Below, one piece after another: positions 5,033 through 57,908 of a stretch of 64,000 nucleotides of DNA; position 1 is the stretch's first letter; each line of letters starts with the position of its first letter. This DNA comes from Alphaproteobacteria bacterium UBA828 (lineage in GTDB: Bacteria; Pseudomonadota; Alphaproteobacteria; UBA828). The notes beneath the pieces were generated by a model. That model saw only the letters and a program-made list of their open reading frames with translations. It was not told the DNA's origin and made no database searches. Made by a program: the position numbers and the translations under genes. The stretch lies in contig DBHM01000013.1 of assembly GCA_002296185.1 (NCBI GenBank), positions 5,273 through 69,272 of the forward strand. The letters run 5' to 3'.

Positions 5033-5935
5033 ATGATGGAAAAAGTTATTGTTCATGAAGTTGGACTAAGAGATGGACTGCAAAATCAATCCAAACACGT
5101 ACATACTGATTCTAAGTTGGAAATTCTTTCAGCCTTAATTGCTTCGGGCATAAAATCTATTGAAGTAACAAGTTTTGTATCTCCTAAAGCTGTACCACAA
5201 ATGTCTGATGCTAAAGAATTATATCAGTCTCTACCAAAAAAACCCGGCCTTCATTTTGAAGCTCTTGTACCAAATTTGAAAGGATATGAACGCGCCACTG
5301 AAAGTGGAGCAAAAACTATTGCTTTAGTTCTCGCCTCTACAGATACAATGAATCGTAAAAACATTAATATGTCTTTAGACGAAGCTCTAAAAGTAAATCT
5401 TGATGTAATACGACGCGCTAATAACGAAGGAATTAGAGCACGTTGTTATATTTCAACCGCCCTTCATTGCCCATTTGAAAATTATGTCAATCCTATAGAG
5501 GTTTTGAAAATTGCTGATAAATTAGATACTGCTGGAGCTGATGAATTAGTTATTGCCGATACTACTGGTGGAGGTAACCCCCAACAGGTTGATGAATTAT
5601 TTAAAGCTCTTGTTATTTCTCATGAACCAAAAAAACTTGCTGGTCATTTTCATGATACACGAGGAATGGGCTTACTATTAGCCTGGGTTGCGCTTCAACA
5701 TGGAGTAAGGAAGTTTGATAGCTCTATAGGTGGATTAGGCGGATGTCCATTTGCTCCTGGCGCTACTGGGAATCTAGCTACAGAAGACCTTGTTTTTATG
5801 CTTAATCAAAGCGGATATGAAACAGGTATAGATATTGTTAAAGTTAGAAACGCAGTCAAAGTCGCACAAGGTTATGTTGATCAAAAACTTGGCGGTAATA
5901 TTGTTGGGTGGTTAGATACTCAAAAAAGTTTATGA
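5033..5935 (+). CDS. Hydroxymethylglutaryl-CoA lyase-like (DRE-TIM metallolyase) protein
   Basis: VIVHEVGLRDGLQN...HFHDTRGMGLL...GGLGGCPFAPGATGN motifs of the HMGL family. I moved the start from the TTG at 5021 to the ATG at 5033, behind a GGAGAG RBS; 5036 is also possible. Confidence 0.8.
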   Translation: MMEKVIVHEVGLRDGLQNQSKHVHTDSKLEILSALIASGIKSIEVTSFVSPKAVPQMSDAKELYQSLPKKPGLHFEALVPNLKGYERATESGAKTIALVLASTDTMNRKNINMSLDEALKVNLDVIRRANNEGIRARCYISTALHCPFENYVNPIEVLKIADKLDTAGADELVIADTTGGGNPQQVDELFKALVISHEPKKLAGHFHDTRGMGLLLAWVALQHGVRKFDSSIGGLGGCPFAPGATGNLATEDLVFMLNQSGYETGIDIVKVRNAVKVAQGYVDQKLGGNIVGWLDTQKSL

Positions 5936-5968: not shown

Positions 5969-6676
5969 CTATTTTAAGGCTGCTCGCTCTTCTGCAGTAC
6001 CAATTTCTATCAGGTCAATTGAGAAATTTAACTTAAACAGTCGGCAGATTTCTTCATAACAAACACCCACTCTAATTGTCTTAAAATCACGTAAGTCAAT
6101 TATACTGCTAGAACGACCTTGGACATTATGATATTTTGAAATACCATAGTCTATTTCAATATCAGCAGCTTTTCTGACTGGCTCTTCAATATCTTCGAGT
6201 TTATACTTACTTCCTTGTAATGAAGTATTTGCCGATGAACCAAAAACTGGCGTATTACGTTCTAGACTTTGTTTTGTCATTTCATTGTGAAGATCACCAG
6301 CATTCATTAACATATCTATTGTGCCTGACTTAGATGAGTTTTTTAGGACAAAAGAATCAACTTCTTTAAATATAGGATGCTCATGAAGAAATGGAGCTAC
6401 GCTGGACATGGGGAGATTATTATCAATAGTTATGCACTTAACTATATCTCTTTCTCTTTGACCAACAATCTGTATCTCATTAAAAAGATCCCAGTTACTA
6501 AACATACCACTTGGTTTTTCAAAAGAACGGTTTTTTGCGGAAAAAATTCGTTTTATTGCAGATTCAGAATTACCAATAACAGCGTATGCTACATCAAGCG
6601 GTATTATTCCAACACCACCAGAATTAATAGTATCTAAAACTCGACTAGCATCCTTTACAATATTTAAATCATCCAT
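5969..6676 (-). CDS. YrdC/Sua5/YciO-domain protein
   Basis: 235 aa. GGVGIIPLDVAYAVIGNSESAIKRIFSAKNRSFEKP, FGSSANTS and SSSIIDL line up with the conserved blocks of the YrdC-like fold. It lies 25 nt downstream of the PrpD-like gene. Confidence 0.6.
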   Translation of the reverse strand: MDDLNIVKDASRVLDTINSGGVGIIPLDVAYAVIGNSESAIKRIFSAKNRSFEKPSGMFSNWDLFNEIQIVGQRERDIVKCITIDNNLPMSSVAPFLHEHPIFKEVDSFVLKNSSKSGTIDMLMNAGDLHNEMTKQSLERNTPVFGSSANTSLQGSKYKLEDIEEPVRKAADIEIDYGISKYHNVQGRSSSIIDLRDFKTIRVGVCYEEICRLFKLNFSIDLIEIGTAEERAALK

Positions 6677-6701
6677 TATTTAAACCTTCATCAATAAAAA
6701 A

Positions 6702-8111
6702 TTAATTAATTTCTTCAGTAAAACAATTTGCAAATTCTAGCACTGGACTATGTTGATTGCTAAAGAAATGTTTTAAATAGTGAGATATTTTTTCAGCTGT
6801 CAATTGTGTATCTAATGGAGTTATAAGAGAACCTAGCTTCTGAATAATTGCAGACTCTGGCATTGGATTTGAAGGTGTGCCAAAACTATCCAAAACTTCA
6901 ACCCTTCTTGTACTATTACCAATAGAATCTAACTCAACCCAGCTTCCAAAATGTTCCGGAAAGGCCTCATCTAAAGACTTGTCATTGTAGGCATGAACCT
7001 TGTCAGCAATCTTTAAAATATTATTATTACCCAAGTTACAACTCTCATATGCTGAATATTCTGTAGGACCGTAAATAATGCTAGCTCCCATTGTATAAGG
7101 TAGACTATATTGTGCAGCCATAACAGAATTTGGCCTCCTCATCATATGCTGAGATACCATTATAGAAGGCCCACCAACCCTTATCTCTTTTATTTCTGAG
7201 GGATTAATACTGAAATCATCAGTAACTTCACGGAGTGCATCTATAGTGGAATGAAATAGACGACAGCAAGGATAGGGCTTCATGCTAATTTTATGAATTT
7301 CGAGTTCATCATCAGAATTTTTTGTGAGTGCTTCTAATAACGGTTCAAAACCAAAGATATTGCATAATCCATAACGACCATCAAATGCTTGACTAGGGCC
7401 ATCAATACCTAAACTGGCAAACTCAGCTGCAAGAATTCCATTATGGGCACCATAACCTGCGTGAAGACGCTTTACAGTTGTGCCTAAGGGGTCTTCAGAA
7501 AACTGCATAGACCCACCAGCCATTGAAAGCATCAAACCCCAGGCTCGAGTTAATTTTTCGGCATTTAAATTTAAGAGTAAACCTGCAGTTGATGTTGCTG
7601 CAAAGCCTCCAAATAAAGCAGTTGGATGAAAACCATGTTCTATAATTTTGTCGGCTCTAGTTGCCCTTCCAATACGTCCTATTGTTTCATAACCTAGAGC
7701 TATAGCATTTGCTATACTTCTACTACTAGATCCAGTAGTAGAACCAACGGCAAATGCAACTGATATTACAACAGCTCCAGGATGTGATACTGAGGTATCG
7801 TGAGTATCGTCAAGTTCCATTCCATGGGCTGCTGTGGCATTAATTAAAGCTGCTATAGATGGTACAGTGCTATATCCACCACCAAATACAGGGGAAATTC
7901 CAGATCCTTTTGTCCTGCTCCCCCATTCCTTTAACGATTTACTCCATGGCATGGTACCACCCCTGAGACAAACACCAAGATAGTCAAGTACAAGATGCTC
8001 TACCTGTATTATATCATTTTCAGATAAACCATTTTTGCTAACATTAATTAGATCATTAGCTAAGTGTAGGGTAAGGTCTTTATTATTTTTCTTTATTAAG
8101 TCATTATTCAT
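6702..8111 (-). CDS. MmgE/PrpD family protein (paralogue 1)
   Basis: 469 aa. LDYLGVCLRG...ELDDTHD...HPGAVVI...GFHPTALFG blocks are typical of the 2-methylcitrate dehydratase-like family. Confidence 0.85.
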   Translation of the reverse strand: MNNDLIKKNNKDLTLHLANDLINVSKNGLSENDIIQVEHLVLDYLGVCLRGGTMPWSKSLKEWGSRTKGSGISPVFGGGYSTVPSIAALINATAAHGMELDDTHDTSVSHPGAVVISVAFAVGSTTGSSSRSIANAIALGYETIGRIGRATRADKIIEHGFHPTALFGGFAATSTAGLLLNLNAEKLTRAWGLMLSMAGGSMQFSEDPLGTTVKRLHAGYGAHNGILAAEFASLGIDGPSQAFDGRYGLCNIFGFEPLLEALTKNSDDELEIHKISMKPYPCCRLFHSTIDALREVTDDFSINPSEIKEIRVGGPSIMVSQHMMRRPNSVMAAQYSLPYTMGASIIYGPTEYSAYESCNLGNNNILKIADKVHAYNDKSLDEAFPEHFGSWVELDSIGNSTRRVEVLDSFGTPSNPMPESAIIQKLGSLITPLDTQLTAEKISHYLKHFFSNQHSPVLEFANCFTEEIN

Positions 8112-8222
8112 TATTGCTGACCAGTTAATGTTTATAATTTTTGATACATATTAATATGGCATGGCTCTTGCAGTTATGTATATAGTAATAGTTACTTAGC
8201 GAGTGATTAGAGGAAACAGAAA

Positions 8223-8426
8223 ATGAGCAAAATAAAAACAGATACTGTTAAATCTATAACTAGAGATTTTATTGGAAGAGATTTAGATCCAGGCCGGGAG
8301 CATCAGCTTTCTGAGAATTTATCCTTACTTATTAAATCTATAGATAAAGCTACAGAAAGATTACCGTTCGAATCAGAACCTATTGGTTTTACCTCGATCC
8401 TAGAGAAATATGCAGAGGAAAAATAA
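8223..8426 (+). CDS. Small GatC/AtzG-like protein, putative partner subunit of the downstream amidase
   Basis: 67 aa. The stop lies 2 nt before the amidase ATG. The pattern LDPGREHQLSENLSLLIKSIDKATERLPFESEP resembles the GatC/AtzG helical-hairpin subunits. Judged by eye only. Confidence 0.5.
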   Translation: MSKIKTDTVKSITRDFIGRDLDPGREHQLSENLSLLIKSIDKATERLPFESEPIGFTSILEKYAEEK

Positions 8427-8428
8427 CT

Positions 8429-9832
8429 ATGAATTCGAAAGAAATTCTTAATAGAAATATCATATCACTCGTTGAATCTCTCAAATCAAGAGAAATTAAA
8501 GTTTCAGAGGTTACCGAGGCTTCAATAATAAGATCTGAGGAAATGCAAAAAAAATTAAATTGTTATATCTCCTTTGACTTTGATAAAGCCATGGATAAAG
8601 CAAAATCATTTGATAATGAAAAAAATAAAGAAGGAAAACTTTTTGGAATTCCCATGGCACATAAAGATATGTATTACCGAAAAGGAAGAGTATCAACTTG
8701 TGGATCAAAAATAAGAAAAAACTGGGTTGCTGATAAAACATCTACGGTGCTAAGTCGCTTAGATACGGAAGGAGCTCTAGATATTGGAACCTTAAACATG
8801 GCAGAATTCGCCACAGGCGCTACAGGACATAATGAACACTGGGGAAATTGCCGAAACCCATGGAACAATGAACACATTACAGGCGGATCATCCAGCGGAA
8901 GTGGCTCTTCAGTTGGAGCTAGAGCTGTTTTTGCTTCACTTGGGTCAGATACTGGTGGATCTGTTAGACTTCCAGCTGCAGCATGTGGAGTTGTTGGCCT
9001 AAAACCAACACATGGTTTGATAAGTAGATATGGAATTATGCCACTAAGTTATTCAATGGACACAGTTGGACCACTTACTCGTACAGTAAAAGATAATGCA
9101 CGAATAACTGACGTTATATCTGGATATGATCAAGAAGACACTACGACCTCAAATAGACAACATAAAAACTTTGAAGAATTTTGTGGAAAAGATATATCAA
9201 ATTTAAGAATTGGACTTCCAAATAGTTATTTTTTTGAAATAGCAACTAATGAAATTAAAGAGAAAATTAATGAGGTGATTAAGGTTTTTCAAGGTCTAAA
9301 TGTTGAGATTGTTGAAGTAGACCTACCGGATATGCACTTAATAACAAACCTCTCAAATATAGTTTTTCCGACTGAAGCATGTGCTATACACTCAAAATGG
9401 CTTTCTGAAAGGTCTGACGAATATCAAATCCAAGTAAGAACAAGATATGAGCCAGGACTATATATTCCTGGACATAAATATATTCAGGCACTCGACATGA
9501 GACCATATCTATTAGATCAATTCATACAAAAATCTTTAAAAAATGTAGATGCGATGATCGTACCAGGTATGCCTTTTGCTGTACCCCGTATAGATGAAAC
9601 TGATGTCGCTGCTGGCGAAAAAATGGCTGATACAATAGCATCGATTAGTTGGTGCACTAGACCTACTAACTATTTAGGAATTCCAGCATTATCTGTACCA
9701 TGTGGATTTACAGAAAATGGTTTACCTACTGCCTTTCAGTTAACAGGAAGGCCTTTTTCAGAGGGTCTTTTGTATCAAATTGCACATGCCTATCAAACAG
9801 AAACTGTTTGGCATGAAAAATCACCCAGTTAA
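8429..9832 (+). CDS. Amidase-signature amidase (GatA/AtzE-like), paralogue 1
   Basis: 467 aa. The signature GGSSSGSGSSVGA and the upstream MAHKDMY (Lys of the Ser-cisSer-Lys triad region) are present. Confidence 0.85.
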   Translation: MNSKEILNRNIISLVESLKSREIKVSEVTEASIIRSEEMQKKLNCYISFDFDKAMDKAKSFDNEKNKEGKLFGIPMAHKDMYYRKGRVSTCGSKIRKNWVADKTSTVLSRLDTEGALDIGTLNMAEFATGATGHNEHWGNCRNPWNNEHITGGSSSGSGSSVGARAVFASLGSDTGGSVRLPAAACGVVGLKPTHGLISRYGIMPLSYSMDTVGPLTRTVKDNARITDVISGYDQEDTTTSNRQHKNFEEFCGKDISNLRIGLPNSYFFEIATNEIKEKINEVIKVFQGLNVEIVEVDLPDMHLITNLSNIVFPTEACAIHSKWLSERSDEYQIQVRTRYEPGLYIPGHKYIQALDMRPYLLDQFIQKSLKNVDAMIVPGMPFAVPRIDETDVAAGEKMADTIASISWCTRPTNYLGIPALSVPCGFTENGLPTAFQLTGRPFSEGLLYQIAHAYQTETVWHEKSPS

Positions 9833-9858
9833 AAATACTATATTTTAGGAGCAGGTCT

Positions 9859-10743
9859 ATGGAAGCAACAGAAAAAAGAAGAATTTTGGCAACCCAACTT
9901 AAATCCGGTGAATTTATACTCGGTGCTGGGGTTTACGATATGATTTCAGCAAAAGTTGCTGATAGAATAGGTTTTAAAGCCCTTTATATGACAGGATATG
10001 GTATAGCAGCATCCCATCTAGGATTACCTGACGCAGGCCTTGCATCCTATTCAGATGTTGTAGAAAGGGTTCGAAAAATAGCAAATGGAACTAAAACACC
10101 CCTTATATGCGATGCTGATACAGGATTTGGTGGTCTATTAAACGTCAAACATACTATTGAAGGGTTCGAAGATGCGGGTTGTTGCGCTATACAACTTGAA
10201 GATCAGGAAATACCAAAAAAATGCGGTCATACACCAGGCCGTAAAGTAGTCCCATTAGAAGATATGGTAGATAAGATTAAAGTCGCAGTAGATTCACGTA
10301 AGGATGAAAACTTATTAATAATTGCAAGAACCGACTCTAGAACTGATCTAGGTCTTGATGTTGCTATAAAGAGAGGAAAAGCCTTTCAAGAAGCAGGTGC
10401 TGACGTAGTATTTGTTGAAGCACCCGAATCAGAAGAAGAGATTGCTGAAATTGGTAATTCTTTTCCTGATACACCTCTTCTAGCAAATATGTCAGATTTT
10501 GGTAAAACACCAATTTTAGACAGTAAACATTTAGAGAGATTAGGATTTAATATATCAATTTTCCCTGGCTTAAGTTTTCTTACTGCAGCCGGAGCATTAG
10601 ACTCAGCCTATAGGACTTTATTTAATGAAGGAACCTCAGACAATGTGTCAGTACCGAGGTTAACTCTACCTAATATGCATAAGTTAATGGGATTTGAAGA
10701 TGTATGGGAATTTGAAAAAAAATACCAGAGAACTTCAAGGTAA
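9859..10743 (+). CDS. Isocitrate lyase/PEP mutase family lyase (2-methylisocitrate lyase / dimethylmalate lyase / oxaloacetate decarboxylase-like)
   Basis: 294 aa. DADTGFGG and QLEDQEIPKKCGHTPGRKVV motifs of the ICL/PEPM superfamily. Confidence 0.8.
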   Translation: MEATEKRRILATQLKSGEFILGAGVYDMISAKVADRIGFKALYMTGYGIAASHLGLPDAGLASYSDVVERVRKIANGTKTPLICDADTGFGGLLNVKHTIEGFEDAGCCAIQLEDQEIPKKCGHTPGRKVVPLEDMVDKIKVAVDSRKDENLLIIARTDSRTDLGLDVAIKRGKAFQEAGADVVFVEAPESEEEIAEIGNSFPDTPLLANMSDFGKTPILDSKHLERLGFNISIFPGLSFLTAAGALDSAYRTLFNEGTSDNVSVPRLTLPNMHKLMGFEDVWEFEKKYQRTSR

Positions 10744-10754
10744 TAATAGAAAAA

Positions 10755-10785
10755 AATAGGCGGATCCTTACAGATACCGCCTATT
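10755..10785. terminator. Bidirectional intrinsic terminator between convergent genes
   Basis: Stem AATAGGCGG / CCGCCTATT, extendable via ATC/GAT with one bulge. An A-run at 10750-10756 gives a U-tract for the minus-strand hyuB transcript, and T-rich sequence follows downstream. Confidence 0.6.
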
Positions 10786-10811
10786 ATCTCAATTTTTGAT
10801 ATCTAGTTTTG

Positions 10812-12734
10812 TTATTCTCCCGCGGCTAGGGCCTTATGAGCTTCTTTACGACCCTTAAGTCTTCTACGTCCGAGTTCATTTAACTCTGGCGCAGTTGGAG
10901 GTTCCCTTCCCGTCTCATCTTTACAACGAGCACGGATTTCCTCTATTTCACCACCGCGATCAAATAGGGGAACCTCAGCTCTTTCAGAACGTAGCTTATC
11001 TCTAAGAGAATTAGTTTCTTGTTCGTTAACTGATAAATCTGAATTTAAGACAACCCCGTACCTCTTAGCACCATCAAATGTTATAAGTCCACGGTCAACT
11101 TCGAGAGCTACAAGCGCTGGGTCACGTTCGAATGGATCGCCCCATCCACCTCCACCCCAAGTGCAGAAATGAAGTATATCGCCTTCTTCAACTTTAACAT
11201 GATCACATTTGGCCGGCATCAATTCAGTTGTACCGTCTACACGTTCAAGGATCTTTGTACTCCTAGCACCAGGCCCACCACCATTGACACCCCAAGGATA
11301 TGTAAGCCATCTATCATCATGGAGGGACATTTCGCCAGGTTCTAATGCTCTATATGAAATTTTTACACCGTTACCTCCTCTATGAAGGCCTGGGCCTCCT
11401 GAGTCTGGTATTGTCTCATACGTTTCAATACGTAGTGGGAAGTATGCTTCTAAAAACTCATTTGGAATATTAGTAAAAGATGGCCATAAAGAGTGACCAT
11501 CAGGACCATCACCAACTGGGCGACCCGGTATACCACCAAATCCAATTTGATAAAGCTGATACCACTCTCCTTTTTTATCATAACCAGAATAAAAGAAGTG
11601 AGGACTATCTGAGAAACCTGCAGCTACCATAAAATCTGGGGCACGTTGCCCAAGTAACCCGCCCAAGACATCAAATGTTCTAGCCAACGCATGTGTGCGA
11701 GACGATAAAGCAGCTGGCTTTAATGGTTTCAACATACATCCGGGTGGTATTCTGACATCAATATATCTATAGAAACCGTCATTAAACATAATTTGGGGAT
11801 CAAATATATTAATCATATAAACACCAACAAACATTTTGAACATTTCCTCATTTAAAAGGAAATTTATAGAGCTAGATGATTGTGGATCAGTACCTTCAAA
11901 ATCAAAGATTAACTTGTCTCCTTCTCGCCACATTGTACAAGCCATAGTGTATGGACCACTACCTACTCCATCGTCACATATGTAGTCTTCAAAGTAGACT
12001 TTTTCATCCTCACCAACTGTTTCTCTAATTAGCTTGAGCATAGCTTTTCTATTTCTATCGAGAAGATGCTCGTATGCAGCCATTACTGTATCAACGCCAA
12101 AACGATCACAAAGCTCTACCACCCTTTTCTCTGCTAGACGAACACCTGCTACCAATGCGAAGAAATCACTTTTATTCCAGTGAGGCATCCTACACTGATG
12201 CAGAATTACTTTAAGAACATCTTCTTGCAATTCATCGTTCTGATAGATCTTAACAACAGGTATGACCACACCCTCTTCATAGATTTGATGAGCATCTGTA
12301 GGAAGGCTACCTGGTGTTTTACCTCCAACGTCAGTCATATGACCAAACATAGAGGCATAACCAACGTGGCGACCCTCGTAAAATATCGGTCTAAGAACCA
12401 ACCAATCATTTGCATGGCTGATTGCTCCGGCACAGCTATATGGATCTGAAGTTAAAAATAGATCTCCTTCTTCAATAGTACCATCGTAATGTCTCTTAAA
12501 GCCGTGCATAAATGAACCAAACTGACCAACTACCATGTCACCTTCAGGGTCGGCGATCATTGGGAATTCATCGTGCTGTTCTCTTATACCTGGAGACATT
12601 GCAGTTCTATATAAAACCGCGTCCATCTCATACCGGGCATTTTTAAGAGCACTCTCAATTATATCTAGTGTAATTGGATCAAGATCCACTTTTTCAAATG
12701 GAGTCTCATCTGACTGAATTATTGTTGCTGGCAT
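10812..12734 (-). CDS. Hydantoinase B/oxoprolinase family protein (HyuB-like, set 1)
   Basis: 640 aa. DPITLDIIESAL at the N-terminus and C-terminal WGGGGWGDPFERDP. It lies 15 nt downstream of HyuA set 1 with an AGGAAGGA RBS. Confidence 0.9.
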   Translation of the reverse strand: MPATIIQSDETPFEKVDLDPITLDIIESALKNARYEMDAVLYRTAMSPGIREQHDEFPMIADPEGDMVVGQFGSFMHGFKRHYDGTIEEGDLFLTSDPYSCAGAISHANDWLVLRPIFYEGRHVGYASMFGHMTDVGGKTPGSLPTDAHQIYEEGVVIPVVKIYQNDELQEDVLKVILHQCRMPHWNKSDFFALVAGVRLAEKRVVELCDRFGVDTVMAAYEHLLDRNRKAMLKLIRETVGEDEKVYFEDYICDDGVGSGPYTMACTMWREGDKLIFDFEGTDPQSSSSINFLLNEEMFKMFVGVYMINIFDPQIMFNDGFYRYIDVRIPPGCMLKPLKPAALSSRTHALARTFDVLGGLLGQRAPDFMVAAGFSDSPHFFYSGYDKKGEWYQLYQIGFGGIPGRPVGDGPDGHSLWPSFTNIPNEFLEAYFPLRIETYETIPDSGGPGLHRGGNGVKISYRALEPGEMSLHDDRWLTYPWGVNGGGPGARSTKILERVDGTTELMPAKCDHVKVEEGDILHFCTWGGGGWGDPFERDPALVALEVDRGLITFDGAKRYGVVLNSDLSVNEQETNSLRDKLRSERAEVPLFDRGGEIEEIRARCKDETGREPPTAPELNELGRRRLKGRKEAHKALAAGE

Positions 12735-18140: not shown

Positions 18141-19265
18141 TTAAAAAGTCTCCCCAATAAGATTCTGCTCACCTAAAGCTTTTTCCATAAAATGCACATC
18201 TGCCGGTGACCAGGTTGCCGTCACGTCATCACCTACATTAGCAGGATTTGTAAAATACTCCCTATCTTCTATTACTGCGACAATCTGGTCAGCTTCTGGG
18301 CGATCTATAGTTACCTTGACCCAATTACCCTGATATTCAACGGCATTTACTTTTCCACTTAAAGCATTACCCCTGTCTTCTTGTCCCTCGGTCCCAAGTA
18401 AGTGTACTTTATCACGTCTAACACCAAAGCTTAAATCTGAACCTTCTTTCTTACCTTGAGCGGGAACCTGATAAACTTCGCTACCAGGACCCTTTAGTGT
18501 TTCCATATTATTCTTTGAATCCCTTACAGCACCAGAAAAAACATTCCACCCACCCATAAACTCTGCAACATAGGTTGTTTTAGGCAAATCATAAATTTCA
18601 CGTGCTGAGCCTGCTTGTTCAATACGTCCTGTTTCCATAACAACAACTAAGTCTGCTAATGCTAGCGCCTCAGGTTGTGTATGAGTTACATGTATAAAGG
18701 TTATACCTAAATCTAGCTGAAGGCGCTTAACTTCAGCCCTCATCTGTAATCGAAGATATTCGTCTAATGCTGATAACGGCTCATCAAGTAATAATACCTT
18801 AGGATTTGTAATTAGAGATCTTGCTAAAGCAACACGTTGTTGTTGGCCTCCAGATAACTGGGCCGGCATCCTAGTAGCAAGTGGCTCTAATTGAACTTTT
18901 TTAAGAACTTCATATGCCTCTTGTTGCCTTTGCTCACGACCTATGTTTTTCATTTTCAAACTAAAAGCTACATTATCAAGAACGGTTAGATGGGGAAATA
19001 ATGCATAGCTCTGGAACATCATAGAAGTTCCGCGTTTTCCTGTAGGAACACCAATAACAGATTGGCCTCCAATAGTAATGTCACCTTCAGTTGGAACTTC
19101 ATGTCCTGCAATCATTCTAAGTAAAGTAGTTTTTCCGCATCCACTCGGACCAAGCAAACAACAATAAGATCCATCAGGGATTGAAAGATTAATATTTTCT
19201 ACTGCATTATTATCACCAAAAGCTTTGGTAATATTAGTAATAACAACTTCACCAGGTCCTGACAT
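18141..19265 (-). CDS. ABC transporter ATP-binding protein (PotA-like)
   Basis: Walker A GPSGCGKTT, signature LSGGQQQRVALARSL, Walker B LLLDEPLSALD. The C-terminal TOBE-like extension is as in PotA/MalK. Confidence 0.9.
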   Translation of the reverse strand: MSGPGEVVITNITKAFGDNNAVENINLSIPDGSYCCLLGPSGCGKTTLLRMIAGHEVPTEGDITIGGQSVIGVPTGKRGTSMMFQSYALFPHLTVLDNVAFSLKMKNIGREQRQQEAYEVLKKVQLEPLATRMPAQLSGGQQQRVALARSLITNPKVLLLDEPLSALDEYLRLQMRAEVKRLQLDLGITFIHVTHTQPEALALADLVVVMETGRIEQAGSAREIYDLPKTTYVAEFMGGWNVFSGAVRDSKNNMETLKGPGSEVYQVPAQGKKEGSDLSFGVRRDKVHLLGTEGQEDRGNALSGKVNAVEYQGNWVKVTIDRPEADQIVAVIEDREYFTNPANVGDDVTATWSPADVHFMEKALGEQNLIGETF

Positions 19266-19293
19266 TTATCGTCCTATTAAAAAAATAGTTGTC

Positions 19294-19316
19294 TGAGGTA
19301 AAAATTGATTACCTCA
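19294..19316 (-). promoter_or_regulatory. 5'-UTR hairpin upstream of the ABC ATPase gene
   Basis: TGAGGTAA-7 nt-TTACCTCA is a perfect 8-bp stem. On the minus strand it is followed after 8 nt by a T7 run (19279-19285), then an AGGA RBS and the ATG at 19265. Confidence 0.4.
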
Positions 19317-19624
19317 TATTTTAAATTTATATATAGAGAATTAATTCTAGCTGTATCAAGTAAAAACAGACAATTCTTTATATTTTATATATTATAAAAC
19401 TTAATATTGCTAAATTATATTACCTTTTGAATTTACTCTACAAGCTAGAAGTCTCCCGTTTAGCATGGTATTAAGATAGAAATATATCCGCTTTATTAGT
19501 ATTTTTTCATATAAACTACAACTATATAGCTGTTTTTTTTCACCCTGACAATTTTTTGTTGTCTTGGGTAATGAATATTATTTTCAAATACCTAAATATC
19601 AAGATTTCAAGGAAGAAATATAAA

Positions 19625-20797
19625 ATGCCAAAACCTGGACAATCAGAAATTAGCGAACAAGACGAACGTATTATTCTGGAAAATATTGACAGATTTATCG
19701 AGAGAGATGTTAAACCAAACGTACATCAACTTGAGAAAGACGACATATATCCAATTGAAATTGTTGATAAAATGAAGTCTTTAGGTTTATTCGGTGCGAC
19801 TATATCTACTGAATATGGAGGTCTAGGTCTTCCAGTAACAACCTACTCCAAAATTGTGGAAAAAATTTCAGGTGCTTGGATGTCGGTTAGTGGAATCATT
19901 AATTCTCACCTAATTATGGCAGCAGCAATAGAAAGGCACGGTACAGATGAGCAAAAGTCTCATTATTTACCTCGTTTTGCTACAGGAGAAATGAGAGGAG
20001 GCATTGCTCTCACTGAACCTGATTGCGGGACAGATCTTCAATCCATTAGGACAGTGGCTAAAAAGAAGGGAAATAGTGGTTATATTATTAACGGTTCAAA
20101 AATGTGGATTACAAATAGCCAAGAAGGTCATGTCGTAGCCTTACTTGTGAAAACAGACCCAAATGCAGAGCCTCGCCACAAAGGAATGAGCCTATTTCTT
20201 GCTGAAAAAGGAGATGGTTTCAAAGTGAGCCGTAAACTAGAAAAACTCGGCTACAAAGGTATAGATAGTTGTGAATTAGTTTTTGATGATTATTTTGTTG
20301 ATTCAGATAAACTTATTGGTGGTGAAGAAGGAAAAGGTCTCCAACAAGTTTTAGGTGGACTCGAGCTTGGCCGAATTAATGTGGCAGCAAGAGGTGTGGG
20401 GATTGCACAAGCTACCCTTGATGAGGCAGTTAAATATAGTCAAACCCGTAAGACCTTTGGCAAACCAATATGTCAACACCAAGCAATACAATTGAAACTC
20501 GCTGAAATGGCTACACGGCTTGAAGCTGCAAGATTATTAACCGATAGAGCTGCTGAAGCTTTTGCAAGTGGACAAAGAGCAGATATGGAAGCCGGTATGG
20601 CAAAACTATTTGCTACAGAAGCTGCCATGGAAAATGCACTTGATGCAATGAGAATTCATGGAGGCTATGGATACTCAAAAGAATACCCAATAGAGAGAAT
20701 GTTTCGTGACGCTCCATTATTATTAATTGGTGAGGGTACAAACGAGATCCAAAAAATAATTATTGCCCGCCAGTTAATTGAAAGAAATCCTACATAA
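19625..20797 (+). CDS. Acyl-CoA dehydrogenase
   Basis: GIALTEPDCGTDL, WITNS and IGEGTNEIQKIIIARQL (catalytic Glu region) motifs. Start moved from the TTG at 19556 to the ATG at 19625, behind AAGGAAG. Confidence 0.9.
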   Translation: MPKPGQSEISEQDERIILENIDRFIERDVKPNVHQLEKDDIYPIEIVDKMKSLGLFGATISTEYGGLGLPVTTYSKIVEKISGAWMSVSGIINSHLIMAAAIERHGTDEQKSHYLPRFATGEMRGGIALTEPDCGTDLQSIRTVAKKKGNSGYIINGSKMWITNSQEGHVVALLVKTDPNAEPRHKGMSLFLAEKGDGFKVSRKLEKLGYKGIDSCELVFDDYFVDSDKLIGGEEGKGLQQVLGGLELGRINVAARGVGIAQATLDEAVKYSQTRKTFGKPICQHQAIQLKLAEMATRLEAARLLTDRAAEAFASGQRADMEAGMAKLFATEAAMENALDAMRIHGGYGYSKEYPIERMFRDAPLLLIGEGTNEIQKIIIARQLIERNPT

Positions 20798-20825
20798 TTA
20801 ATACATAAACTTAACGGAGTCTCGT

Positions 20826-22037
20826 GTGAATAACGAACACCTTCCTTTAAAAGGTCTAAAGATTATTGCCCTTGAACAATATGGGGCAGCACCTTTCGGC
20901 ACAATGTTTCTAGCAGATCTTGGCGCTGATGTTATTAAAGTAGAGAATCACCTAACAGGGGGAGAGATGGGACGTCATGTCGTGCCATATTCCGAAGACG
21001 GAGACAGTCTTTTTTTTCAAAGTTTTAGTGCCAATAAACGATCGATAGGTCTAAATATCAAAAGTTCAAATGGTAGAAAGATATTAGACAAATTAGTGTC
21101 TTCTTCTGACGCTCTAATTAATAATCTTCGAGGAGATCTTGTTAATAAATTAGGATTAAATTATAAATCCTTTTCTAAACATAAGCCTGAAATTGTGTGT
21201 GTTCATCTTTCTGCCTATGGAAGGAACAATTCAAGAGCCTCTTGGCCTGGACTAGATTATGTAATGCAAGCAGAAGCAGGATATCTTTCTGTTACTGGCG
21301 AGCCCTCGTCACCTCCAACTCGTTTTGGACTTTCTATAGTAGATTATCAAGCAGGACTTACAGCCGCATTGGCACTATTAGCAGGAATACTTGGTGCACA
21401 AAGAACTGGAAGGGGCCAAGATTATGATGCAGCCCTTTTTGATGTTGCAATGACCAACCTAAGTTATCCTGCAACCTGGCATCTAACTGAGGGATATAAA
21501 CCTGAACGTATAGCAAGATCAGGACATCCATCACTTGTTCCGAGTGAATTATATAAAACTAAAAATGGCTGGATATTTATTATGGCAAATAAGGATAGTT
21601 TTTGGCCAAAACTTGTTACAGCTATTGAAAAACCTCAGTGGATAAAAGATCCAAGAATCAGTGATTTCAAGTCTAGATTAAAAAATCGTCAGCTAGTTGT
21701 GGAATTACTGTCAGAAGTTTTTATTAAAGAAAATACAGAATATTGGCTAAGTAAACTTACAGGCCTACTTCCATGCGCCCCAGTAAACAATATAGAATCC
21801 GCATTATCTAATAAGTTTTCCGATGAAAGAATGATAACACAAAAGATATCTCATCCAAAGTGGCAGAACATGAAAGTAGTACGACAACCAATACTTGCTG
21901 ATGAAAATGTTTTACCTCGCAAAAAGGCGCCTTTACTTGGAGAAGATACAATCAATATATTAAAGGAGATCGGCTATGAAGAAGAAGAAATTAATACATT
22001 GTTAAGCGATAAAACAATATTTTCTCAAATAATCTAG
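20826..22037 (+). CDS. CaiB/BaiF family (class III) CoA-transferase (paralogue 2)
   Basis: 403 aa. LKGLKIIALEQYGAAPFGTMFLADLGADVIKVE N-terminus. GTG start behind a GGAG RBS. Confidence 0.85.
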   Translation: MNNEHLPLKGLKIIALEQYGAAPFGTMFLADLGADVIKVENHLTGGEMGRHVVPYSEDGDSLFFQSFSANKRSIGLNIKSSNGRKILDKLVSSSDALINNLRGDLVNKLGLNYKSFSKHKPEIVCVHLSAYGRNNSRASWPGLDYVMQAEAGYLSVTGEPSSPPTRFGLSIVDYQAGLTAALALLAGILGAQRTGRGQDYDAALFDVAMTNLSYPATWHLTEGYKPERIARSGHPSLVPSELYKTKNGWIFIMANKDSFWPKLVTAIEKPQWIKDPRISDFKSRLKNRQLVVELLSEVFIKENTEYWLSKLTGLLPCAPVNNIESALSNKFSDERMITQKISHPKWQNMKVVRQPILADENVLPRKKAPLLGEDTINILKEIGYEEEEINTLLSDKTIFSQII

Positions 22038-22056
22038 AAAATTAAATTAAGATTCT

Positions 22057-22084
22057 ATAAATATATATTCATATATATATTTAT
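22057..22084. terminator. AT-only hairpin between convergent genes
   Basis: ATAAATATATAT-TCAT-ATATATATTTAT is a 12-bp stem. It overlaps the stop codon of the minus-strand PrpD-like gene. Weak because it is all A-T. Confidence 0.35.
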
Positions 22085-23481
22085 AGATGCCCCTCACATT
22101 TAAAATAATCTGTGATAGTACTAAATTTACAAACGTCATCAATATTTAGAACGGCATTTATAGCAGATTCATAATTTCCTTTTGATAAAACTAGGCTAGC
22201 ATTTTCTTTGAATTTACTAATTATCTCTTTGGGCTCTAAAGGAGTAACATCAGCTCCCCTATTGATCTCTTCTCTTTGAATAAAAACTTCATTATTTTTA
22301 GTGGTAACTTCTATTTCTCCGGAAAAGTATTTAGGATATAAAGAGCCCTCCATTGGTTCACAAAAAACTTTATCACAAACACTAATAACCTGAGGCTCTG
22401 TATATGAAGACTTTTCAAGATCAGCAAGTGTAAAACGATCACGAACAATTGCACTAGCTACGAGATAAGGTAAACTAAATTGAGCCTCGTATCCACTACC
22501 CGGTCTCCGTTTTGCAGATAAAGGTTCACCGACAACAGGTAGGCTATCTTCCGCAACTCTCGCAACAACTTTTTTTACGTCTTCTGAAGACAAACTATGC
22601 TCATTAAATAATTTACGTGTAGCATCAATACATGAATGAGTTAAATGACATGCTGGATAAGGCTTAACTCCTACACTTAACATTTCCCATTCTTTACCCA
22701 AACCCTTAGTTACAATCCCAATATCTACTTCTATATCTTCACTAGAGCAGGTATTATATACACCATACCGTCCTTCATAAGGGCTTAACACACCTTCAAA
22801 ACCATGCTTACACATAGACACTGCAGTAAGGCCACAAACCGCAGCCCAACCTGGATGCATTCGTTTTGTCCATGCTCCTTCTTTTAAAAATTCAAGATTT
22901 CCAGAAGCCATACTATAGACAGTGCCTTGTGCTTGAACTAACTCTTTAACACTTAATGAAGCTAAACAACCTGCTGCTATTGTTGAACCAAATGCACCTA
23001 TTAAACCTGTAGGATGAAAACCCTTCTTATGAAAACCCCCTTTAGCAGCCATTCCTATACGGGAACTGCACTCAATGGCTGCAATATAAGCAGATAATGC
23101 TTTTTTTCCATCAACACTATGACGCTTTGCTGCGCTTAAAACAGATGGAAGAGCACTTGCTGTTGAATGAATCACACCTGCAACATGAGTATCATCAAAA
23201 TCTAAAGAATGAATCAGAAAACCGTTCATTAAAGCAGACTCTCGATACGGTAGACCAACGTTCGATCCTATTATGGGGTAATCTCCCTCCCCTCCAATAT
23301 CAAGAATTCCAGAAAGTGTTTTTTTACTATACGTTTGCTTTGTAGACGCAAGAGCTATTCCAAAAGCATCTAATATATGCAATTTAGCACGGTGAATAAC
23401 TGCCTCAGGAATATCTTCATATCTTAACGTTATCGCAAATTCTGCAAGTACTTCAGATATTGATTTGGTAGAATCATTCAT
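22081..23481 (-). CDS. MmgE/PrpD family protein (paralogue 2)
   Basis: 466 aa. LDAFGIALAS...LDFDDTH...GFHPTGLIGAFG blocks of the PrpD fold. Confidence 0.85.
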   Translation of the reverse strand: MNDSTKSISEVLAEFAITLRYEDIPEAVIHRAKLHILDAFGIALASTKQTYSKKTLSGILDIGGEGDYPIIGSNVGLPYRESALMNGFLIHSLDFDDTHVAGVIHSTASALPSVLSAAKRHSVDGKKALSAYIAAIECSSRIGMAAKGGFHKKGFHPTGLIGAFGSTIAAGCLASLSVKELVQAQGTVYSMASGNLEFLKEGAWTKRMHPGWAAVCGLTAVSMCKHGFEGVLSPYEGRYGVYNTCSSEDIEVDIGIVTKGLGKEWEMLSVGVKPYPACHLTHSCIDATRKLFNEHSLSSEDVKKVVARVAEDSLPVVGEPLSAKRRPGSGYEAQFSLPYLVASAIVRDRFTLADLEKSSYTEPQVISVCDKVFCEPMEGSLYPKYFSGEIEVTTKNNEVFIQREEINRGADVTPLEPKEIISKFKENASLVLSKGNYESAINAVLNIDDVCKFSTITDYFKCEGHL

Positions 23482-23577
23482 GGACTCTTAAGGATCCCCT
23501 AAAATGTTAGGATGCAATTTGGAAAATAGCATAATTCAATATTTAAAATTTTTTTTAATTTATGTTCTGTCTCAATT

Positions 23578-24096
23578 TTAATAATTAACCTTATCATCAA
23601 CAGCATGACCCATCTTTGGAATTAACATAGCTCGCTCAAAACTAATAACCTGAGCACCCTCCTGATTACATCCGATACTCCGGATCTTAACTATACCTTG
23701 AGTTGGTCGAGAATTTGATTCTCTCTTCTCCAATATTTTAGATGAAGCATAAATAGTATCACCGGCGAATACAGGTGAAGTTAATTTGATATCAGTCCAC
23801 CCAAGATTAGCTATAGCCTTCTGACTTGTGTCACTTACGGACATTCCAGCAACAATAGATAATGTGAGACAACTATTTACTAAAGGTTTTCCAAATTCAC
23901 TTGCAGCAGCATACACTGAGTCAAAATGTATTGGGTGTTGGTTCATTGTTAATAGAGTAAACCAACTATTGTCCACCTCACTTATGGTTCTACCTGGACG
24001 ATGTTCATAGATATCTCCCACGACAAAGTCCTCAAAATAACGACCATAGCTCTCTCGATAAGTTTTATCAGATACTTTTTTTCCTAAAGCAACCAT
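23578..24096 (-). CDS. MaoC-like (R)-specific enoyl-CoA hydratase/dehydratase (hot-dog fold)
   Basis: 172 aa. FEDFVVGDIYEHRPGRTISEVDNSWFTLLTMNQHPIHFD resembles itaconyl-/mesaconyl-CoA hydratase-type MaoC proteins. Confidence 0.8.
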   Translation of the reverse strand: MVALGKKVSDKTYRESYGRYFEDFVVGDIYEHRPGRTISEVDNSWFTLLTMNQHPIHFDSVYAAASEFGKPLVNSCLTLSIVAGMSVSDTSQKAIANLGWTDIKLTSPVFAGDTIYASSKILEKRESNSRPTQGIVKIRSIGCNQEGAQVISFERAMLIPKMGHAVDDKVNY

Positions 24097-24142
24097 AAAT
24101 TAAACTCCTAAAGATAATTCATATAAAATATATTATGTTGAT

Positions 24143-25231
24143 TTACTCCACTCTACTAGAGGCTATATCATGAGCAAATACAAACATGTCCTCTAAATAT
24201 TCTTCAAAACGACCAAATCGAGGATCCTTTGTGGTACCTCTTTTATATTGTGCATTGATTTGTAAAAATACAACTGCAAGTTTAAACTGTGCTAGAACTC
24301 TATAAAACCTGATATCACTTGTATCTCTACCACTTTTTTCAGAATACATACGAATAACATCTTTTCTTTTAGGAAACGAAAGACACGAAGTTGGCATTTG
24401 CTCAATTATTTGCATTGCCTTTGGATCATCAGGCTCAACCCAATAACTTAATAAAGTACCTAGGTCAAAAAGTGGATCTCCTCTTGATCCCATATCCCAA
24501 TCAACAACGGCAATAGGTGTTAAATCTTTTGGATCTAATAAAATATTATCCAATTTAAAATCATTATGAAGTAAAGTAGGTAATCCATCCTTCACCTGAT
24601 TCTTCTCCAACCAATTCACAACTTCTATAGCTATATTTGGAGGGCTATCATCTGATCCTAGAAAAAGTCTTTTTTTCCATCCCTTAACCGCTCTTTCGAG
24701 AAAACCCTCAGGCTTTCCAAAATCCCCAAGCCCAACAGTCTCAGCATCAACATTATGTAGGTCTACAAGTATATCGATAAGAAGTTCAGTTATTTTAACA
24801 GGAGCATCTTTAATTAAAGCTACTTCTTCAGGAAGATGACCACTAATAGTATTTCCTTTTCTATATTCCATAATTAAAAAATGATTGCCTAAAATACTGT
24901 GATCTGGACAGTAATGAAAACTTTTTGGGGCTAAGGGAAATTCTTTCCACAATTTACTTAGAATATGATGTTCTCTTTTCATATCGTTTGCACCAGGTGG
25001 TATCTTTCCCATCGGTGGTCTTCTTAAAACTGACAAGGATCCATTAACTATTATTTGGTAATTAAGGTTACCAAAACCAGATGAGAACTGTTTTGGTGCA
25101 TTAAGTTCTGGATCAAAACTAAGGCCCTCAGATTGTAGATAGCATTGTAGAGCTTTCCAATCTTGAGCAGTCTCAGAATCCTTATCTAAAAAAACTGGGT
25201 CCGCGCCCCAAACAGAAACCATAAAGATCAC
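24143..25231 (-). CDS. Phosphotransferase enzyme family (APH/choline-kinase-like) kinase
   Basis: 362 aa. LLHNDFKLDNILL (catalytic loop, HxDxxxxN) and VVDWDMGSRGDPLFDLG (DxD metal loop). Confidence 0.75.
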   Translation of the reverse strand: MIFMVSVWGADPVFLDKDSETAQDWKALQCYLQSEGLSFDPELNAPKQFSSGFGNLNYQIIVNGSLSVLRRPPMGKIPPGANDMKREHHILSKLWKEFPLAPKSFHYCPDHSILGNHFLIMEYRKGNTISGHLPEEVALIKDAPVKITELLIDILVDLHNVDAETVGLGDFGKPEGFLERAVKGWKKRLFLGSDDSPPNIAIEVVNWLEKNQVKDGLPTLLHNDFKLDNILLDPKDLTPIAVVDWDMGSRGDPLFDLGTLLSYWVEPDDPKAMQIIEQMPTSCLSFPKRKDVIRMYSEKSGRDTSDIRFYRVLAQFKLAVVFLQINAQYKRGTTKDPRFGRFEEYLEDMFVFAHDIASSRVE

Positions 25232-25316
25232 CTAACGTTATTTTCTCTTATAGGGAAGTCTTAATATTACAAATTCATCGCGTAAGCACCAGAATATCGC
25301 TCAAGAAATTCAAAAA

Positions 25317-26222
25317 TTATCTATTCTTAAGGTTAATGAAGAAAACTCCCATAAATAAAGGCACTAAAGCAATTAGTACCCATATACTCAGCCTTTCTCC
25401 GAAGAAAGCCATCCCCCATAAAATTCCTGTAATAGGAGTTATAAAATTAACGCTTGTAAAAAATACAGGGCCCATAGTCCGAATTAGCTCAAGGAAAAGA
25501 TATATACCTAATGCCTGCAATGGCGCCGACATAATTAGTGCCCAATCTGCATCATCCATTTGACCACTAAACCACCACCAATCACCCGAACCCGCCATAA
25601 AAACAAATAAAAATAATGATGTGGCAAGGAAAAAACCAGCTGAGAATTGGATTGCGTCACTTTTAGGTGGAGGAAGTAATGCAGCAGATAATGCACTTGT
25701 TGCATACCCGAGTGGTGCAAGCAAAACTAAGATAACCCAACCAACAAGATCAGGGCTTGGTAAGCTTGCTTCAGGAATCACTATAAGCAAAACTCCACCT
25801 ACACCAACGATAAAACCAAATGATTTTAATGCTGTTAGTCTGTCTAACCTGAATATTACAGCCCCTAAATAAGTTAAAATTGGTGCTAAGGCTACTAACA
25901 TACTAGTTATACCTGCAGGCACCCCTTCACTTGATGCAATTGTTACAGCAATATAGGGAATACCAAACCCTGATATTCCGGTCATAAAATAACCTCGCAG
26001 ATGAGGAATACTAATACCAGGGTAGGATCTTTTAGGTAGACACATAATCATCATAATTATACCTGCACCTAAACTCATCCAAAATGAAAATGCAAAAGCA
26101 GGTATCCCACCACCTACCCCTACACCGACTAAAGAGTAAGTTAGACCATAGGCAACTCCGGTTATAAAAAGCATAAAGAGAGGAAGAATAATTGGATTTG
26201 GATGGATTCCAAAGAAATTCAT
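25317..26222 (-). CDS. DMT-superfamily (EamA-like) transporter
   Basis: 301 aa, about 10 hydrophobic segments, two-repeat architecture. Family call comes from topology and composition only. Confidence 0.7.
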   Translation of the reverse strand: MNFFGIHPNPIILPLFMLFITGVAYGLTYSLVGVGVGGGIPAFAFSFWMSLGAGIIMMIMCLPKRSYPGISIPHLRGYFMTGISGFGIPYIAVTIASSEGVPAGITSMLVALAPILTYLGAVIFRLDRLTALKSFGFIVGVGGVLLIVIPEASLPSPDLVGWVILVLLAPLGYATSALSAALLPPPKSDAIQFSAGFFLATSLFLFVFMAGSGDWWWFSGQMDDADWALIMSAPLQALGIYLFLELIRTMGPVFFTSVNFITPITGILWGMAFFGERLSIWVLIALVPLFMGVFFINLKNR

Positions 26223-56510: not shown

Positions 56511-57908
56511 ATGATAGATGAATTAATTCAGCTAGACGCATGCACTGTGGCAGATGAACTCAAAGCAGGAAACCTAAGTCCCAAAGAGTTAGTTGATGCG
56601 TCTGAAAGAAGAATTAATCAAACAGATCATATAATAAACGCGATCCCGACAAAGTGTTTTGACCGAGCGCGGTCCTCACTTAAAAGTTTAGATAAATATA
56701 ATAACCCCCTGAATGGAATTCCAATTGTAATTAAAGACCTAATGCCTGTAAGTAATGTTCTCACTACTTACGGGTCAAAGATTTTTTCTGATAATATTCC
56801 GGATAAATCAGATTCATTAGTTAATAGAATTGAAAAATCTGGTGGAGTAATTATGGGAAAATCTAATACTCCAGAATTTGGTGCTGGAGCAAATACATTT
56901 AATGAAGTTTTCGGCGCTACATTAAATCCATGGGATATATCCAAAACATGCGGGGGATCCTCTGGTGGCTCCGCTGTCTCTATTGCAACCGGGCAAGTTT
57001 GGTTAGCTCATGGATCAGACCTTGGAGGTAGCCTAAGGACACCAGCTTCTTTCTGTGGAATTACTGGATTACGACCTAGCCCAGGTCGAGTACCTACTTC
57101 ATCATCTAATTTACCATTTTCATCATTATTTGTTGATGGTCCAATGGGGAGGAATGCAAAAGATGTTGCCTTATTCCTTGATGCAATGTGTGGATTTGAC
57201 ACTCATGATCCCCTTTCCTACCCAAAGCCTGAACACTCTTATCGTCAAGCCGCAGAAAGAGAAGAACTACCAAAACGTATTGCTTACAGCCCTAACCTCG
57301 GCTTTGCACCAGTAGATAAGGAAGTTTCAGATATATGCGAAAAAACCCTTAAGGTTTTGTCTAGCGGTGGCGCTAAAGTAGAACTTGCATCGCCAAATCT
57401 TCAAAAAGCGCGTGAATCTTTTCACACTTTGCGAGCAGCATATTTCGCAGCAGATAAATACAGCTTATTGGACCAATATCCTGATATTTTAAAACCTGAA
57501 TTAGTATGGAATATAAAAAAAGGACTTGAACTGACAGCAAAAGAAATTGGCAAGGCTGAAATTATACGTGCAAATATCTTCAGAAATTTTGTAGAATTTT
57601 TTGATACATATGATCTTCTTGTTTGTCCTACAGCGATAGTACCACCTTTTGATGTCAATATTCGTTACATAGAAAATGTAGGTGATGTATATTTCGACAA
57701 TTATGTTGACTGGATTGCAATTACTTTTGTTTTAAGCCTTAGTGCCTGCCCTATCGTTGCCACACCAGCAGGAATAACCAAAAATGGATTACCTGTAGGA
57801 TTGCAGATACTGGCACCACCTAAACGCGAGGATATTGCTTTGTCTGCTGCAGCATGGCTAGAATCTCAACTTCAATTAAATAAACTATTACCAATAGACC
57901 CAACATAA
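56511..57908 (+). CDS. Amidase-signature amidase, paralogue 2
   Basis: 465 aa. GIPIVIKDL and GGSSGGSAVSIATG signature. Confidence 0.85.
   Translation: MIDELIQLDACTVADELKAGNLSPKELVDASERRINQTDHIINAIPTKCFDRARSSLKSLDKYNNPLNGIPIVIKDLMPVSNVLTTYGSKIFSDNIPDKSDSLVNRIEKSGGVIMGKSNTPEFGAGANTFNEVFGATLNPWDISKTCGGSSGGSAVSIATGQVWLAHGSDLGGSLRTPASFCGITGLRPSPGRVPTSSSNLPFSSLFVDGPMGRNAKDVALFLDAMCGFDTHDPLSYPKPEHSYRQAAEREELPKRIAYSPNLGFAPVDKEVSDICEKTLKVLSSGGAKVELASPNLQKARESFHTLRAAYFAADKYSLLDQYPDILKPELVWNIKKGLELTAKEIGKAEIIRANIFRNFVEFFDTYDLLVCPTAIVPPFDVNIRYIENVGDVYFDNYVDWIAITFVLSLSACPIVATPAGITKNGLPVGLQILAPPKREDIALSAAAWLESQLQLNKLLPIDPT

Follow-up and report, generated by a model that had tools for sequence, protein, structure and literature searches.

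A small gene coupled to an amidase gene in Alphaproteobacteria bacterium UBA828 encodes a putative distant relative of GatC and AtzG

Organisation and conservation of the locus

The window analysed here is a stretch of 64,000 nucleotides of contig DBHM01000013.1 from Alphaproteobacteria bacterium UBA828 (positions 5,273 to 69,272), and our analysis concerns two adjacent genes that it carries: a small open reading frame (ORF) and, directly downstream, a gene coding for an amidase-signature enzyme (Table 1). Only two bases, CT, separate the stop codon of the small ORF from the ATG of the amidase gene, and on this point, as on every other one checked, coordinates and sequence agree with a preliminary description of the locus made from the sequence alone. 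The peptide quoted in that description, LDPGREHQLSENLSLLIKSIDKATERLPFESEP, is present in the encoded protein. Each of the two start codons is preceded by a GAGGA, the second copy lying inside the small ORF itself in a position that points to translational coupling. A scan of positions 7900-11000 for promoters and terminators gave nothing above chance. A second amidase gene of the window (56511-57908) had been described as lacking such a coupled small ORF upstream, and none is there.

Relatives of the amidase at 43-68% identity were collected from eight loci (L001-L008) in marine and freshwater metagenome-assembled genomes (MAGs) of alpha- and beta-proteobacteria. In all eight, a homologue of the small ORF coding for 61-69 amino acids adjoins the amidase start or overlaps it (ATGA). 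Absence from syntenic loci had been named beforehand as an observation that would speak against the pair; the small ORF was found to be present throughout. A survey of 401 alphaproteobacterial genomes recovered the small-ORF family in 12 of them, with 14 matches. For 13 of these matches the GGSS motif of an amidase lies on the same strand, 448-484 nt past the stop of the small ORF; the stretch examined for the fourteenth showed no amidase ORF. Because a homologous small ORF precedes the amidase in eight of eight loci and in 13 of 14 alphaproteobacterial matches, the arrangement is not a product of chance.

The small ORF is a genuine gene and is under purifying selection. The ratio of nonsynonymous to synonymous substitution rates (dN/dS) between loci is 0.08-0.22, and residues E50, E52 and P53 are invariant in 29 sequences, being kept across alpha- and beta-proteobacteria at overall identities of 15-40%. 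Searching 5.8 billion proteins with a profile delimited the family as approximately 31 clusters at 90% identity, all of 50-69 amino acids, from alpha- and beta-proteobacteria of marine and freshwater samples; members are called 'hypothetical protein' where they are named at all, and no Pfam domain was found in any of the clusters. A phmmer search of 1.84 billion representative sequences returned only four true relatives, plus repeat-protein noise. The locus closest to that of the window is L002, followed by L001, and the genome of the window groups with Alphaproteobacteria. Of these two loci, which have the same synteny, L001 is labelled 'Gammaproteobacteria bacterium' and L002 Rhodospirillaceae, and at least one of these MAG labels is probably wrong.

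Table 1. Position and characteristics of the features of the locus (window positions unless a contig is given)
Feature	Position	Strand	Characteristics
Small ORF, 67 amino acids	8223-8426	+	ATG start; TAA stop at 8424-8426
Amidase-signature enzyme, 467 amino acids	8429-9832	+	PF01425, E=2.7e-103, full length
Shine-Dalgarno-like GAGGA	8210-8214	+	8 nt before the ATG of the small ORF; read from the sequence
Second GAGGA	8415-8419	+	Inside the small ORF, in its final codons, and 9 nt before the ATG of the amidase; putative translational coupling
Phosphoenolpyruvate (PEP)-mutase/isocitrate-lyase superfamily enzyme	9859-10743	+	PF13714, E=9e-45; 26 nt downstream of the amidase
MmgE/PrpD-family protein	6702-8111	-	PF03972 and PF19305; divergent, 111-bp intergenic region
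cls2 family member of the same genome (see text)	ORF C21:74199-74447; amidase C21:72860-74131	-	About 3.6-5.2 kb past the 3' end of the window

The amidase and its phylogenetic placement

Membership of the amidase-signature family rests on the PF01425 match and on the catalytic residues. K79 (in AHKDM), S154 (in GGSSSGS) and S178 (in GSDTGGSVR) align with the corresponding residues of GatA and AtzE, and judged by this Lys-cisSer-Ser triad the predicted enzyme is catalytically intact. Its best sequence relatives in the PDB are GatA chains (E=7e-78), followed by AtzE (6c62_A). Assignment to a named subfamily was not obtained: the amidase scores 338 bits against the gatA model, below the cut-off, 319 bits against the AtzE-family model (cut-off 461), and 300 bits against a cut-off of 426 in tests for AtzE/HpxW-type enzymes (NF006631, TIGR02715).

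A maximum-likelihood tree of 62 amidase sequences gave a consistent picture. The amidase of the window groups with its eight relatives and with two paralogue-like members of the same bacterial family, in a clade supported by a Shimodaira-Hasegawa-like approximate likelihood ratio test (SH-aLRT) value of 99. The AtzE-type amidases, the GatA proteins and a further group of partnered amidases treated below (cls2) each form a clade with an SH-aLRT of 100, and all three are distinct from that of the window amidase. Placement relative to GatA and AtzE had been proposed as a check, and its outcome is a clade of its own, separate from both. Amidases without a partner, the second amidase of the window included, fall outside this clade. 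The small protein is strictly linked to one amidase clade, and each class of partner tracks its own clade of amidases, as expected for co-evolving subunits.

Relation of the small protein to GatC and AtzG

We compared the small protein with three groups of amidase partners by aligning profiles with hhalign. The AtzG-like profile was built from ORFs of 24 genomes, an adjacent amidase being present at 23 of the 24 loci, and the GatC profile from about 28 genomes. A third profile was built for an unnamed family of about 70 amino acids, here called cls2, which is encoded upstream of another clade of amidases.

Against the AtzG-like profile the small-protein family aligned with a probability of 72% (P=3.4e-5, score 27.8) over 48 colinear columns. 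The score of 27.8 compares with 9.1+-1.9 (maximum 16.3) for 150 column-shuffled controls of the same, smaller profile, and with 9.2-9.8 for reversed profiles. When 13 more diverse members were included, giving a profile of 42 sequences, the probability was 79% (P=1.5e-5) over 56 columns; the same profile gave 86.5% (P=4.6e-6) against cls2 and 45% (P=2.2e-4) against GatC. Across profiles, the values ranged from 74 to 86% for cls2 and from 13 to 45% for GatC. The broad alignment of 24 genomes was needed for the AtzG-like result, a narrow one of close AtzG homologues giving probabilities of only 10-29%. In these alignments the small family's conserved EP is matched with that of AtzG-like proteins, of cls2 and of GatC, where it is likewise conserved. 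Remote homology to AtzG-like proteins thus extends over most of the length of the protein, which also has the size (about 60-70 amino acids) and the position, upstream of an amidase-signature gene and translationally coupled to it, that characterise AtzG-like partners.

How these numbers compare with an accepted relationship can be judged from AtzG-like proteins and GatC, whose direct alignment reached a probability of only 6.6%. The cls2 family matches both of them better, with 93.8% (P=1.7e-7) against GatC and 76-87% against AtzG-like proteins, and therefore bridges the two.

An AlphaFold2 model of the small protein, based on the family alignment, has a predicted local distance difference test (pLDDT) score of 83.6. 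It consists of a helix (residues 6-17), a loop, a second helix (25-45), an extended segment with E50-x-E52-P53, and a third helix (56-66). The model opens with the same helix-loop-helix as a model of AtzG. Among 350,542 PDB chains searched with Foldseek, the top match of the model was GatC (9a62_B, the GatC chain of a GatA-GatC model; probability 0.90, TMq 0.56), and AtzG (6c62_C) was listed at rank 16. Taken together, the profile comparisons and the predicted fold indicate that the small ORF most likely encodes a distant relative of the GatC/AtzG type that the curated models miss.

Comparison with known systems

The best reference for this arrangement is the AtzG-AtzE pair of Pseudomonas sp. 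ADP (pADP-1), a 1-carboxybiuret hydrolase (PDB 6C62/6C6G; PF13318) to which pairs of the HpxX-HpxW type are related. AtzG, itself non-catalytic, assembles with AtzE into an obligate heterotetramer, and in its absence AtzE is insoluble (PMC6219798). The two systems share a helical protein of about 67 amino acids encoded directly upstream of an amidase-signature gene, a gap of 2 nt between stop and start codons, and a helix-loop-helix followed by an extended tail in the predicted structures of both small proteins; AtzE is moreover among the best PDB and NCBIfam matches of the amidase. They differ in the C-terminal motif, which is PLPDE-x-EPAPVF/RP in AtzG-like proteins and FE-x-EP-x-x-F followed by the third helix in the family of the window, and in the amidase, which belongs to a separate, well-supported clade and falls short of the AtzE cut-off.

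In the tRNA-dependent amidotransferase GatCAB (GatC, PF02686; PDB 2F2A, 3H0L, 9A62), GatA has the K79/S154/S178 triad in common with the amidase of the window, and GatC aligns with the N-terminal helices and the EP of the small protein. The pair is nonetheless distinct from the canonical gatC-gatA genes of the same genome, which are found elsewhere, on contig 26, and it has no gatB beside it. By length as well (67 amino acids, versus about 95 for GatC), the small protein is no member of the GatC family, to which it shows remote similarity only.

The third comparison is with cls2, a member of which is encoded in the same genome beyond the end of the window (loci L082/L113; Table 1). This 73-amino acid protein (MTKKRDDISDKAISVIASQ...LPLKDVEPAIIFRP) is encoded by an ORF that overlaps the start of the third amidase gene of the genome, and the family was also found at loci L080, L081 and L083, with no strong match to any model. 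Here too, a small gene without annotation at the level of Pfam lies upstream of an amidase gene. In contrast to the small protein of the window, cls2 is much closer to GatC, has a C-terminal motif of its own (...LPLKD[VI]EPA..FRP), and accompanies amidases of a different clade. A literature search for further GatC-like partners of amidases found only papers on AtzG and GatF.

Gene neighbourhood and possible substrate

The preliminary description had placed a lyase of the isocitrate-lyase family directly downstream of the amidase, an assignment borne out by the PF13714 match. The score of this enzyme against the PrpB model TIGR02317 (267 bits, cut-off 354.4) places it in the superfamily only, and it is referred to here as PrpB-like. 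The gene is syntenic in L001 and L002 and probably belongs to the operon as its third member. On the other side of the pair, the MmgE/PrpD-family gene and a stand-alone gene of the YrdC/Sua5 fold form a divergent two-gene unit on the reverse strand (5969-8111), which is likewise syntenic in L001 and L002.

The marine loci have as neighbours PrpD-like, YrdC-like and PrpB-like proteins, a coenzyme A (CoA)-transferase, a protein resembling 3-hydroxy-3-methylglutaryl (HMG)-CoA lyase, HyuAB and an importer of the ATP-binding cassette (ABC) type. In the freshwater beta-proteobacterial loci L003, L004 and L006, a gene for an EamA transporter precedes the pair, and a gene of the Amdase family (similar to arylmalonate decarboxylase and maleate isomerase) and TctC lie nearby; two of the three, L004 and L006, also have a PrpD-like gene beside the pair, which in L004 (3247-4686) codes for the same domains as that of the window. 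In a relative from the same bacterial family (L097; G402:C15:1-9000), the pair is found directly beside genes for an ABC ATPase, an acyl-CoA dehydrogenase, a MaoC hydratase, a kinase of the aminoglycoside phosphotransferase (APH) type and EamA. The gene set of this last neighbourhood is also found 8-16 kb downstream in the window (18141-26222). This hints that the amidase and this dicarboxylate-CoA cluster are functionally connected.

The thread common to these varied neighbourhoods is the chemistry of di- and tricarboxylates. We tentatively propose that the amidase might act on the half-amide of a di- or tricarboxylic acid, possibly a branched one, a suggestion that must be regarded as doubtful.

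That 1-carboxybiuret is an unlikely substrate had already been suggested, on the grounds that no cyanuric acid hydrolase or allophanate hydrolase is encoded. Our results agree, since the amidase is not part of the AtzE clade and scores below the AtzE cut-offs, no AtzD-type match and no allophanate hydrolase match above the cut-off was obtained, and no HpxZ/AtzH gene follows the pair. Near the pair, atzD, atzH/hpxZ and atzF were not found, and nothing in the genome, which is 77% complete, scored above the cut-off for allophanate hydrolase. Likewise, PF09663 (AtzD) had no match in the genome, a weakly supported absence given this completeness and the fact that the model was silent in every control genome as well.

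A proposed two-subunit amidase and its alternatives

We propose that the two genes encode a two-subunit amidase, in which a small helical, non-catalytic protein descended from GatC, as AtzG is, would be co-translated with the enzyme encoded downstream. If GatC-GatA and AtzG-AtzE are a guide, the small protein would wrap around the amidase, which would require it to fold, to stay soluble and to reach its oligomeric state; that the two proteins physically associate, and that the amidase depends on its partner, is what these known pairs would lead one to expect. The amidase, acting through its Lys-cisSer-Ser triad, would hydrolyse a carboxamide and release ammonia, and the acid product may then feed the neighbouring PrpD-like, PrpB-like and CoA-transferase/HMG-CoA-lyase-like enzymes. 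To this two-subunit reading we assign a probability of roughly 0.75.

Several results weigh against it. The small protein had no match to PF13318, PF02686 or NCBIfam models even at E<=10, and neither the single sequence nor a profile retrieved AtzG or GatC chains from the PDB. PF13318 was equally silent at E<=10 for five relatives of the protein and in a six-frame search of the whole genome, and genuine AtzG (pADP-1) matches this model at 36.2 bits; membership of the AtzG-like family is thus not established by the model. The hhalign probabilities of 72-87% obtained for the small family never rise above 95%. The Foldseek E-values, 0.39 for GatC and 6.7 for AtzG, are not significant alone, and the AtzG model lacks an equivalent of the third helix (56-66). 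Moreover, the amidase tree is not resolved along its backbone, which leaves a single origin of all partnered amidases unsupported, and the substrate proposal draws solely on gene neighbourhoods that vary. As regards Foldseek, a control with the model of genuine AtzG retrieved AtzG itself and placed GatC only at rank 37 (E=8.2), so that weak numbers are to be expected for isolated models of subunits that wrap around another protein. The initial suggestion of a GatC/AtzG-like partner, drawn from residue spacing alone, is borne out, though not by the route first suggested: the comparison with hidden Markov models (HMMs) of the GatC and AtzG-like families that had been suggested as a check yielded no match, and support comes instead from the predicted fold and from profile-profile comparison (72-79% against AtzG-like proteins, P=1.5e-5 to 3.4e-5).

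The silence of the HMMs for PF13318 and PF02686, the non-significant Foldseek E-values and the direct hhalign probabilities of only 13-45% against GatC would suit a dedicated accessory of this amidase clade that does not descend from GatC, its helical hairpin and acidic E-x-E-P tail having arisen independently. We consider such an origin improbable, since 48-56 of about 67 residues align colinearly, with EP on EP, the scores lie about 10 standard deviations above shuffled and reversed controls, the similarity rose with more diverse sequences, cls2 bridges both sides, and GatC is the top structural match of the whole chain set. Descent from GatC could also be accepted and the role of the pair be different. 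The small subunit could then bridge the amidase to the PrpB-, PrpD- or YrdC-like protein in a GatCA-like, ammonia-generating module, the pair working in amidotransfer or channelling rather than as a plain catabolic hydrolase. The C-terminal helix absent from the AtzG model is compatible with such a scheme, as are the GatA chains heading the PDB matches of the amidase and the genes for a PrpD-like and a YrdC-fold (adenylate-forming) protein kept beside the pair in L001 and L002. Set against these are the variability of the neighbours across the family (EamA, Amdase-family and TctC genes in beta-proteobacteria, others still in G408 and G402), the lack in the small protein of the C-terminal part of some 30 residues of the GatC of about 95 amino acids, and the absence of any GatB/GatE-like gene nearby. 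The bridging module as such is hence quite improbable. We see a similarly slim chance that the small subunit has a role beyond stabilising the amidase: through its C-terminal helix it could hold the amidase to one of these enzymes, in the manner of GatC in GatCAB, and the pair would release the ammonia within a larger channelling or amidotransferase complex, of which it would be one half, with a small-molecule acceptor in place of tRNA.

Two explanations that do without a structural partner are less probable still. A short, directly upstream and translationally coupled ORF may be a regulatory upstream ORF or leader peptide, whose translation rather than product controls expression of the amidase. 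It is its amino-acid sequence, however, that is under purifying selection (dN/dS well below 1, at the values given above), with residues invariant between alpha- and beta-proteobacterial homologues of low identity and a confidently predicted AlphaFold2 fold, and a leader peptide is accordingly very improbable. Just as remote is an inhibitor or immunity-type partner, for which Tse8, an effector of the type VI secretion system, offers a precedent: this protein of the amidase-signature fold is encoded beside a small immunity gene (PMC12283126), that of Tsi8. The locus of the window is a catabolic one, with no secretion-system genes among the neighbours surveyed, the triad of its amidase is intact, and the small gene is upstream and translationally coupled, its product resembling GatC and AtzG. 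The two-subunit amidase with a GatC-descended, non-catalytic partner is therefore the explanation that we retain.

Implications and wider observations

The design of an amidase with a GatC-derived mini-subunit is already known; what is new is the family and the bridging argument, not the principle. The practical value of the finding lies in annotation and in guidance for co-expression. An amidase of this clade would be labelled a stand-alone enzyme and, if it is true that the partner is needed as AtzG is by AtzE, the amidase expressed alone would be insoluble or inactive. The finding also has an evolutionary side, through a family that ties together GatC, the AtzG-like proteins and the small-ORF family. 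The cls2 bridge supports the published idea that catabolic pairs of amidase and partner descend from GatCA, and our results suggest that this idea extends well beyond PF13318. At least four partner families can be distinguished (GatC, cls2, the AtzG-like proteins and the small-ORF family), and GatC, cls2 and the small-ORF family co-occur in the 1.6-Mb genome. Whether GatC-derived mini-subunits are ancestral to, and general among, a wide range of catabolic amidases is, in our estimation, about an even proposition.

Three further observations were made. The N-terminal extension of a PRK07235-type amidase encoded on contig 12 was considered as a candidate for a fused GatC helix and was rejected, the HMMs of four partner families scoring about 0 bits. 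In two other genomes, an AtzG-like domain ends a long open frame, of 668 amino acids in L033 (domain at G156:C1:212881-213030) and of 673 amino acids in L035 (G072:C9:90164-90283); in L035, ABC-ATPase sequence and a masked (N) stretch come before the domain. These long frames may represent a true fusion, read-through in high-GC sequence or an artefact of masking. Finally, the genome of the window (G000) has six amidase-signature genes in its 77%-complete assembly of 1.6 Mb, and 12 related genomes (G401-G412) have between 9 and 25 each.

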